The position numbers were made by a program, and so were the translations under genes. Below, in pieces: positions 1-1,022 of a stretch of DNA of 1,022 nt; within the stretch, counting starts at the first letter, position 1, and each line of letters begins with the position of its first letter. The notes under the pieces are model-generated. The model did not search any database. It was given only the letters and a program-made list of their open reading frames with translations, and was not told the DNA's origin. The stretch lies in assembly GCA_000004985.1 (NCBI GenBank), contig GG739612.1, one strand, 5' to 3'. The stretch comes from Naegleria gruberi (Eukaryota).

Positions 1-236
1 ACTGATCAACAAGGTTACTCCATTAGAATATTTAAATAGATATTCCAATTTATTGCACCAGTTTCTTTATGGGGATTAGAAACCCAAATATTAAATTCTA
101 TTCACAATAACTGCTAGTTTTTCTTATCAATTTTGCTTTATAGCTCCCATTCTTTCCTTTATTCCAAATAGCTTTGTTGAATTCAATCACTAATTACACT
201 ACTCCATCCCAAATCATGATTAATTAAGATTCACTA

Positions 237-263
237 CTTGTTCAATATCAATATTTGAACAAG
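237..263. repeat. Perfect 9-bp inverted repeat CTTGTTCAA / TTGAACAAG separated by a 9-nt spacer (TATCAATAT); it lies about 80-105 bp upstream of the U2 start.
   Basis: Read directly: cttgttcaa-tatcaatat-ttgaacaag. The arms are exact reverse complements. A dyad symmetry of this kind is typical of a dimeric DNA-binding-protein site or a hairpin, but function is unknown. Confidence 0.6.
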
Positions 264-305
264 GCATCATAAACATTTTGTCATTCTTCACTCCACAACA
301 AACAG

Positions 306-313
306 AATAAATA
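306..313 (+). promoter_or_regulatory. A/T-rich TATA-like element (AATAAATA) at -36 to -29 relative to the U2 start
   Basis: This is the only A/T block at the position expected for a TATA element of a snRNA promoter in lineages where snRNA genes carry TATA boxes (plants and many protists). It could equally be chance in AT-rich DNA. No convincing PSE/USE could be called; CACTCCACAAC at 289-299 (-53 to -43) is only loosely USE-like. Confidence 0.3.
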
Positions 314-341
314 CTCTGTTCATTATGTAATTCTGAAAACC

Positions 342-529
342 ATCTTTCTCGGCCAATTGGCTTTGATCGAGTGTAGAATCTGTTCTTTTCAGTTTAATTG
401 CTGAAAGCAGCCCACGGGTTGCAATTACTATTAACTCAATTTTTTGTAGGGATCAGGGTTTGAGCTTAATTGCTCACTTTGGTTTGGTTTCAATCAGACC
501 TTGCACAAACAGTCAGATTAGGAGCCACC
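342..529 (+). ncRNA. U2: U2 spliceosomal snRNA gene, ~188 nt; the 3' end is approximate.
   Basis: Direct comparison with the canonical U2 5' domain recalled from memory (AUCGCUUCUCGGCCUUUUGGCUAAGAUCAAGUGUAGUAUCUGUUCUUAUCAGUUUAAUAUCUGAUA). The window reads ATCTTTCTCGGCCAATTGGCTTTGATCGAGTGTAGAATCTGTTCTTTTCAGTTTAATTGCTGAAA at 342-407, roughly 55 of 66 positions identical. Stem-loop I is GGCC-AATT-GGCU at 351-362. Stem-loop IIa is UUCAG...CUGAA at 389-406. Stem-loop IIb is GCAGCC-CACG-GGUUGC at 407-422. The Sm site AAUUUUUUG lies at 438-446 and is followed by GUAGGGAUCAGGG (human: GGAGCAGGGAG). Stem-loop III is UGAGC-UUAAUU-GCUCA at 461-476. A stem-loop IV-like CAGACC-UUGCACAAACA-GUCAG region at 495-516 carries a UUGCA loop similar to the U2B'' binding motif AUUGCAGUACC. 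The terminal GGAGCCACC at 521-529 resembles the human 3' end GGUGCACCC. The length matches human U2 (187 nt). Confidence 0.85.
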
Positions 530-674
530 TAACTCTTTAAGTTAATTGAAAATCATTGCTCAAAGCTATAATCAGACCAAGATTGAGATGTGGAACAGAT
601 TTCTCTCCCAAAGGAATTATTTGATTGTCTGAAGGTGAATTGTGGAAAATTCAATAAGCAGTCTTAAATAACGA

Positions 675-703: not shown

Positions 704-823
704 GGCTACGGCCATATCACGATGAATGCACCTCATCCCGTCCGATTTGAGAAGTTAAGCATCGTCGAGCCACATCAGTACTGAGGTTGGAGACAACTTG
801 GGAACCTGTGGTGCTGTAGTCTT
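704..823 (+). rRNA. 5S: 5S ribosomal RNA gene (~120 nt)
   Basis: GGCTACGGCCATATCACGATGAATGCACCTCATCCCGTCCGATTTGAGAAGTTAAGCATCGTCGAGCC...GTACTGAGGTTGGAGACAACTTGGGAACCTGTGGTGCTGTAGTCTT matches the universal 5S architecture. The 5' GGCUACGGC (704-712) pairs with the 3' GCUGUAGUC (813-821) to form helix I: 9 bp with two G-U wobbles, the same pattern as in human 5S. A box-A-like GAAGTTAAGC lies at about +48 and a box-C-like GGTTGGAGACAAC at about +80. The CCCGTCCGAT and GTGCTGTAG blocks are conserved. The length is about 120 nt. Confidence 0.92.
751..797 (+). promoter_or_regulatory. 5S internal control region: box A-like (751-765), intermediate element and box C-like (782-797); candidate TFIIIA/TFIIIC recognition region.
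   Basis: By position and sequence it is analogous to the Xenopus 5S ICR (+50 to +97). GAAGTTAAGCATCGTC lies at +48 to +62 and TGAGGTTGGAGACAAC at +79 to +94. Functional assignment rests on established knowledge of 5S genes and is not demonstrable from sequence alone. Confidence 0.45.
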
Positions 824-826
824 TTT
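822..826 (+). terminator. RNA polymerase III oligo-T terminator (T5) at the 5S 3' end
   Basis: A TTTTT run immediately follows the helix-I 3' strand (GCTGTAGTC-TTTTT-ACC). This is the canonical Pol III termination signal. Confidence 0.65.
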
Positions 827-877
827 ACCTTAATGCTCTAATTTATTGTTAAATGTTCATTTGGACTGGCTATTGTT

Positions 878-895
878 AAGGATAATAAGGATAAT
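878..895. repeat. Tandem direct repeat, 2 x AAGGATAAT. A nearby 9-bp direct repeat TATTGTTAA occurs at 844-852 and 871-879.
   Basis: Read directly in the 5S downstream flank as gttAAGGATAATAAGGATAATtt. It is short and low-complexity, with no known function. Confidence 0.55.
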
Positions 896-943
896 TTAAT
901 TTGATTATTTACAATATATATGATAGATTTGGGTCAACTTGGT

Positions 944-1022
944 TTAGAAACACTTTCTATGAACGATGGCACATCCAGCATCTTCATACTCCTCTGCTGT
1001 GATCCACATAGATGAAAGGTGA
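944..1022 (-). CDS. Possible C-terminal end of a minus-strand protein-coding gene running in from beyond the window edge. The peptide is ...HLSSMWITAEEYEDAGCAIVHRKCF and the stop codon is TAA at 946-944.
   Basis: A 25-codon open frame reaches the window edge and has a mixed, non-low-complexity amino-acid composition. The other two minus frames contain stops. On the minus strand an AATAAA hexamer (complement of 843-848) lies about 100 nt downstream of the stop. This is very short and could be chance; there is no homology I can recognise. Confidence 0.15.
   Translation of the reverse strand, partial: HLSSMWITAEEYEDAGCAIVHRKCF

Follow-up and report, generated by a model that had tools for sequence, protein, structure and literature searches.

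U2 small nuclear RNA (snRNA) recognizes the intron branch site through the hexamer GUAGUA. Few short RNA motifs are so strongly conserved across eukaryotes, and altering even one neighbouring base is lethal in yeast or pathogenic in humans. Within this hexamer the residues 5'-G33, U34, A35, G36, U37 and A38-3' pair with the branch-site sequence 5'-UACUA(A)C-3', which places U37 opposite the A at intron position -4. Slightly upstream, positions 23 and 24 form a bulge between U2/U6 helices Ib and Ia, and the first of these two positions is a U in yeasts. In the genomes of flowering plants U2 genes are present in multiple copies and are canonical.

Two described systems are informative regarding how far a U2 RNA can depart from this norm. 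First, the functional U2 of the trypanosomatid Leishmania major has the recognition sequence UUAUAA (PMC4950102); this RNA is highly divergent, has an atypical Sm site and is transcribed by RNA polymerase (Pol) III from a tRNA-linked promoter. Second, human variant U2 genes (RNU2-2 and others) express non-identical U2 RNAs that are incorporated into spliceosomes, with strong constraint upon the 5' 40 nucleotides (PMC12165851; bioRxiv 10.1101/2020.01.24.917260); these expressed variants keep GUAGUA, and r.35 changes cause disease. More generally, changes at positions 35 and 36 are strongly deleterious both in yeast and in humans (PMC12165851).

Here a U2 gene is described in which the recognition hexamer is GUAGAA. 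It lies within a stretch of AT-rich DNA of 1022 nt (termed here the window), whose GC content outside of the RNA genes is about 28-31%, and in which three genes--the U2 gene, a 5S rRNA gene and the tail of an actin gene--occur within 700 nt of one another. The features of the window, together with those of the metagenome contigs with which it is compared below, are listed in Table 1.

Table 1. Positions of RNA genes, U2 elements and the actin tail in the window, and of GUAGAA-bearing U2 genes in metagenome contigs (L numbers).
Sequence	Feature	Position	Strand	Remarks
Window	TATA-like AATAAATA	306-313	+	-36 to -29 of the U2 start; read from sequence, putative promoter element
Window	U2 snRNA gene	342-533	+	Rfam match 340-533; probable 5' end A342 (AUCUUUCUCGG...), 3' end at about 529-533
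Window	Stem-loop I	347-366	+	loop AAUU; single non-pair U349.U364
Window	TT for the usual AA (human A23, A24)	363-364	+	bulge between U2/U6 helices Ib and Ia
Window	GAUCGAG	365-371	+	G369 for human A29; part of the Ia strand of U2/U6 helix I and of the 5' side of the branchpoint-interacting stem-loop
Window	Branch-point recognition sequence GUAGAA	373-378	+	A377 for U (human U37, yeast U38)
Window	Stem-loop IIa	387-406	+	with IIb, 13/13 pairs standard, 4 with both bases differing from the consensus
Window	Stem-loop IIb	407-422	+	see IIa
Window	Sm site AATTTTTTG / AAUUUUUUG	438-446	+	between stem-loops IIb and III; fits RAU3-6GR
Window	Stem-loop III	452-483	+	12 standard pairs; one consensus pair deleted
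Window	Stem-loop IV	486-526	+	loop CCUUGCACAAAC, U2A'/U2B''-type UUGCAC; one non-pair A496.A515
Window	5S rRNA (RF00001)	704-822	+	105.4 bits against a threshold of 38; model 1-120, full match
Window	Actin C-terminus	944-1021	-	last 25 codons HLSSMWITAEEYEDAGCAIVHRKCF, then TAA
L001	GUAGAA U2	5623-5816		
L004	GUAGAA U2	6799-6992		
L005	GUAGAA U2	11034-11227		
L002	GUAGAA U2	716-908		
L007	GUAGAA U2	11957-12149		
L006	U2	1143-1319	-	
L006	U5	839-947	-	
L006	U6	174-275	-	
L006	5S	1-69	-	

When both strands are compared with every Rfam family, RF00004 is matched from the first to the last of its 192 model positions at 110 bits (gathering threshold 46; E = 4e-23), which bears out the U2 gene proposed in a preliminary description of this DNA. 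U2 is also the top match inside clan CL00006, which includes U12; an identity as U12 or as a hybrid was rejected, inasmuch as U2 prevails in clan competition and its recognition sequence is unlike that of U12 (AAGGAAUGA). Projecting the Rfam consensus structure onto the sequence yields 44 standard pairs, in 14 of which both sides differ from the consensus with pairing retained; the modelled pairs that are non-standard are two, U349.U364 and A496.A515, the former being due to the A24-to-U change described below. The centroid fold gives stem-loops I, IIa, IIb, III and IV unaided (z = -2.8 relative to shuffled sequences). Thus the structural hallmarks listed in the preliminary description--the Sm site, stem-loops I, IIa, IIb, III and IV and an upstream TATA-like element--could all be located, and its impression of a gene without the look of decay agrees with the 44 standard pairs, 14 of them arising through two-sided changes.

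The strand elements of U2/U6 helix I are likewise present (GCU at 360-362 and GAUC at 365-368). The segment that links stem-loops I and IIa is unpaired and contains GUGUAGAAUCUGUUCU; five of the six hexamer bases, including those pairing with branch-site positions -3 to +1, are canonical. Among the U2 hallmarks examined, only the exact GUAGUA hexamer is absent; this hexamer is not strictly defining of U2, however, because trypanosomatid U2 has UUAUAA (PMC4950102). By every structural criterion tested the RNA belongs to the U2 family. A 17-nt near-repeat (388-404 and 460-476; TTCAGTTTAATTGCTGA and TTGAGCTTAATTGCTCA; 82% identical), which may be coincidental, occurs in the loop regions of both stem-loop IIa and stem-loop III.

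When A342 is taken as nucleotide 1, the 5' end is one base shorter than that of human U2, so that position 369 corresponds to human A29 (yeast A30) and position 377 to human U37 (yeast U38). Direct reading agrees with the two base changes noted earlier, namely GUAGUA to GUAGAA (GTAGAA in the DNA, the variant base being A377) and GAUCAAG to GAUCGAG (GATCGAG for GATCAAG, the variant base being G369); the motif string AGTGTAGAATCTG, which had been placed at 369-381, actually occupies 370-382, one base higher. Alignment with 36 U2 sequences reveals two further departures: T363 for human A23, a position that is A in 36 of the 36 comparison sequences, and T364 for human A24, where a U is also found in metagenome contig L006 and in GTDB stretches L022 and L053. 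In other words, the 5' functional block of the window U2 has four unusual bases, and not two.

With canonical U2 (RF00004; animals, plants and fungi) the gene shares a length of about 190 nt, stem-loop I, the branch-recognition stretch, stem-loops IIa and IIb, the Sm site, stem-loop III and a stem-loop IV with a UUGCAC loop, as well as the GAUC strand of helix Ia and UCUGUUCU. It differs in having GUAGAA for GUAGUA, G for A29, UU for A23/A24 and a stem-loop I loop of AAUU for UUUU, and it scores 110 bits as compared with 150-168 for the plant-type copies considered below. With trypanosomatid U2 it shares a departure from GUAGUA, which in Leishmania is found in a working U2 (PMC4950102) and here in a putatively working one; unlike that far more divergent RNA, it keeps five of the six hexamer bases and a canonical Sm site, the T6 run of which would terminate Pol III.

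As for any U2, the stretch between stem-loops I and IIa would pair with the intron branch site, leaving the branch adenosine bulged; GAUC and its neighbours would pair with U6 in helix I; and the Sm site and stem-loops III and IV would bear the snRNP proteins. All four unusual bases of the 5' block--UU for AA, G for A29 and A for U37--appear to fall where this mechanism tolerates change. The A29-to-G substitution would convert a presumed A29-U41 pair of the branchpoint-interacting stem-loop into a G-U wobble. In the free U2 snRNP the 5' strand of this stem-loop consists of G25, C28, A29, G31 and U32, and A29U is among the milder stem-loop mutations in human cells (PMC13019295). Disruption of the stem-loop by the two substitutions was considered and rejected, because its computed energy is essentially unchanged (+2.2 kcal/mol for the canonical sequence versus +1.7 kcal/mol for the window). 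Two further pairs, G369 with C344 and A370 with U343, are also possible and would lengthen an alternative extended stem I.

The U37-to-A substitution would fall in the loop of the branchpoint-interacting stem-loop and, within the branch helix, opposite intron position -4. That the changed base pairs with -4 had been claimed at the outset, and this matches the established register of U2 and UACUAAC (drawn in the extended data legend of PMC12165851; see also PMC6049509). Position -4 lies outside of the CURAY/yUnAy core and makes little contact with SF3B1: in humans the branch-site consensus is YNYUNAY, in which -4 is N (PMC12165851); the CURAY core begins at -3; and in yeast, substitutions at -4 and -5 had no effect with any Hsh155/SF3B1 mutant tested, a result consistent with few protein contacts there (PMC6049509). 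Being outside the core and little contacted, -4 is a position at which the U37-to-A change may be nearly neutral with degenerate branch sites or else confer a mild preference for U. Against a strict UACUAAC the predicted cost of A37 is a single A.A mismatch; with degenerate, U-rich branch sites A37 would have no effect, or would give an advantage to UUCUAAC-type sites, which have U at -4. Because -4 is unconstrained where branch sites are degenerate, co-evolution of the branch sites would not be required, and a co-evolved branch-site preference is speculation.

The rarity of the two variant bases is real. A scan of a 241-million-record metagenome set for GATCNAGTGTAGAATCTGTTCT, with N at position 29, found GUAGAA in only seven contigs (L001-L007), seven of seven of which are U2 by Rfam; all have A rather than G at position 29, and none of the seven is a close relative of the window. 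In GTDB genome contigs, a pattern in which neither position was fixed (GATCNAGTGTAGNATCTGTTCT) retrieved 46 stretches; these contain about 90 eukaryotic U2 copies, which represent 33 distinct sequences and which all have A29 and U37. The U2 string of the window was found neither in the metagenome nor in the GTDB collection, and a viral contig collection gave no U2-like match. A literature search for GUAGAA and U2 snRNA together found no paper, and searches for the variant sequence strings found these only as unrelated primers.

The GTDB stretches (L008-L053; e.g., CAWUFA030000004.1, CBDAUV010000070.1 and CBDHHR010000240.1) carry eukaryotic U2 genes, often in tandem arrays whose repeat lengths are about 1.37-1.43 kb and 2.08 kb, on contigs that are filed as bacterial metagenome-assembled genomes (Hormoscilla, Anaerolineae, Metamycoplasmataceae, Dehalococcoidia, Poribacteria and others); the occurrence of such arrays there points to contamination of those bins by host or other eukaryotic DNA.

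The seven GUAGAA contigs are of several kinds. L001, L004 and L005, which come from three different samples, carry one identical U2 gene (149.8 bits) with a plant-type 5' end (AUACCUUUCUCGG) and, upstream, a TATA box near -33 that is preceded by a USE-like element (GTCCCACATTG) near -75; in L005 it adjoins an F-box gene that is 75% identical to legume proteins, which identifies this as a flowering-plant locus. The U2 genes of L002 and L007 are also plant-type (168 bits), with a TATA box at about -33. At least three of the seven contigs are flowering-plant copies with promoter-like elements and, judging from their sequences, the plant-type genes appear to be transcribable variant copies in flowering-plant genomes; since U2 is there multicopy and canonical, GUAGAA copies in such genomes must be minor paralogs. 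These plant variants share with the window the U37-to-A change, an intact U2 and upstream promoter-like elements. Unlike the window U2, however, they are otherwise of consensus sequence (A23, A24 and A29 are kept) and reside in genomes with multicopy canonical U2, and their kinship with it is at the family level only. They illustrate that an intact appearance and a promoter are no proof that a gene encodes the main U2.

A different arrangement is seen in L006, a GC-rich (52%), protist-like metagenome contig in which, on the minus strand of 1-1456, U2, U5, U6 and 5S genes lie head-to-tail within 1.4 kb, and whose U2 has GUAGAA and a U at human position 24. Thus L006 shares with the window GUAGAA, the A24-to-U change and a U2 gene upstream of a 5S gene on the same strand; it differs in its GC content, in the U5 and U6 genes between U2 and 5S, in keeping A29 and in a poorly paired 3' domain, and the two show no sequence relatedness beyond the conserved core. 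L003 bears a degenerate, GUAGAA-containing U2 relic (58 bits). The U37-to-A change has, in short, arisen several times independently, and it can persist in intact-looking genes.

The window gene is interpreted here as a functional, lineage-diverged U2 under structural constraint in an AT-rich, gene-dense eukaryote, an interpretation in which there is about as much confidence as doubt; its transcription, its function and its tolerance of the substitutions are read from the DNA and would accompany that interpretation. Its stems have diverged from the consensus yet remain paired, and the A-to-G change at 369 opposes the AT-rich background, both of which favour a constrained, working gene. Further support for a lineage-specific working gene comes from the four tolerable 5'-block changes and from the compact single-locus setting; such a compact, non-tandem setting is typical of small genomes with few snRNA genes. 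Against this interpretation, the roughly 90 U2 copies retrieved elsewhere are all canonical, and two hits in the most conserved 22 nt would also be expected of a recently disabled copy. Leishmania provides a precedent for a functional U2 with non-GUAGUA recognition; on the other side, GUAGUA is kept even where evolution is fast and introns are tiny, namely in Stentor, which has 15-nt introns (PMC9505925), and in myxozoans (PMC13644364). An appeal to tiny-intron lineages as an account of the variant was set aside because these same papers report conserved branch-binding sequences.

If this is a working U2 with GUAGAA and G29 in a normal cis-splicing organism, then it would show which bases of the branch helix and the branchpoint-interacting stem-loop can truly be dispensed with, and it would offer a natural orthogonal U2/branch-site pair for study. 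A more ambitious version, improbable on balance, takes it to be the sole or principal U2 of a cis-splicing lineage in which GUAGAA, G29 and the UU helix I bulge are fixed, introns prefer U at -4, and U6 is changed opposite G29. If true, this would constitute natural co-evolution of U2 with introns and of U2 with U6, at positions that are otherwise frozen, outside of the kinetoplastids.

Of the competing explanations, the one that survives best--possible, though on balance improbable--is that canonical GUAGUA genes (GAUCAAGUGUAGUA) supply most of the U2 and that this copy is a minor variant paralog, with low or no expression and either little role in splicing or a role confined to a subset of introns. 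The plant contigs lend it substance, inasmuch as they place U37-to-A in otherwise perfect U2 genes (150-168 bits) with plant USE-like and TATA elements, one of them next to the legume-like F-box gene of L005, and in humans the expression of variant U2 genes has been documented (bioRxiv 10.1101/2020.01.24.917260; PMC12165851). Yet the window copy is off the norm at four positions of the 5' block rather than at one, and its stems have diverged with compensation, which together suggest long independent evolution under constraint; moreover, it is a lone U2 among unrelated genes in a dense region rather than part of an array. The preliminary description had offered both a lineage-specific U2 and a variant paralog: its U2 identity, base changes, -4 pairing and undecayed appearance stand, while on the choice between the two the evidence points both ways. 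If a side copy, this is an ordinary variant snRNA gene, whose main value is as a warning: several genomes contain U2 copies that look intact and bear promoters and yet have altered recognition sequences.

It is unlikely that the gene is instead a young pseudogene--that is, a dead duplicate with few substitutions so far, two of which happened to strike essential sequence. Such a history would accommodate two substitutions at positions invariant in about 90 other copies as well as two non-pairs in the stems, and degenerate GUAGAA-bearing relics do occur (L003). Under a uniform neutral decay model, however, when the rate is taken from the 2 to 4 hits that fall within the 22-27-nt invariant block, 5 to 9.5 broken pairs are expected as opposed to the two seen (P between 0.11 and 0.002, according to the assumption made). 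The direction of the A369G change in AT-rich surroundings likewise speaks against decay, as does retention of the TATA-like box at about -30, and the truncation, A-tail and target-site duplication of a retro-pseudogene are all absent. That either or both of the variant bases reflect a sequencing or assembly error is very improbable, for although the window is a single sequence, nothing specific favours an error, the two substitutions are separate (8 nt apart) and accompanied by two more at 363-364, none is in a homopolymer, and the adjoining 5S gene and the remainder of U2 read cleanly.

The 5S gene begins 170 nt downstream of the U2 gene on the same strand, and the actin stop codon is located 121 nt further on. 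The 5S gene is preceded by TATATAAA at 675-682 (-29 to -22) and has a T5 run at its 3' end (822-826) as terminator; it is 64-77% identical to 5S sequences of other organisms, with a nematode type highest, a comparison too weak to be of use. Oysters, sole and crustaceans likewise have 5S genes linked to snRNA genes, among them U2 (PMC3464664 and references therein), so that the arrangement is not new as a kind; unlike the oyster and sole examples, the window contains a single unit beside a protein gene and no tandem array. The upstream regions of U2 and 5S share no promoter motif, and there are neither tandem repeats nor tRNA genes in the window.

The actin C-terminus, ending as it does in TAA, indicates nuclear eukaryotic DNA in which TAA is used as a stop codon. 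It is a divergent tail, with HLSS for TFQQ and TAEEYEDAGCA for SKQEYDESGPS, and fits a fast-evolving lineage. No protein in a 5.8-billion-sequence collection carries the ending ...AGCAIVHRKCF, a padded actin query having returned ordinary actins only; exact look-ups of the open reading frame and peptide, and a query built from a duplicated fragment, likewise gave no match. The contigs that encode the three nearest actin tails contain no U2 or 5S gene. A minus-strand match to SNORA43 was dismissed as chance (17.5 bits against a threshold of 80; E = 0.94). The region upstream of the U2 gene (101-341, plus strand), which contains no open reading frame, Rfam match or repeat, is strongly depleted in G, having 18 G in 241 nt and a GC skew that reaches -0.59.
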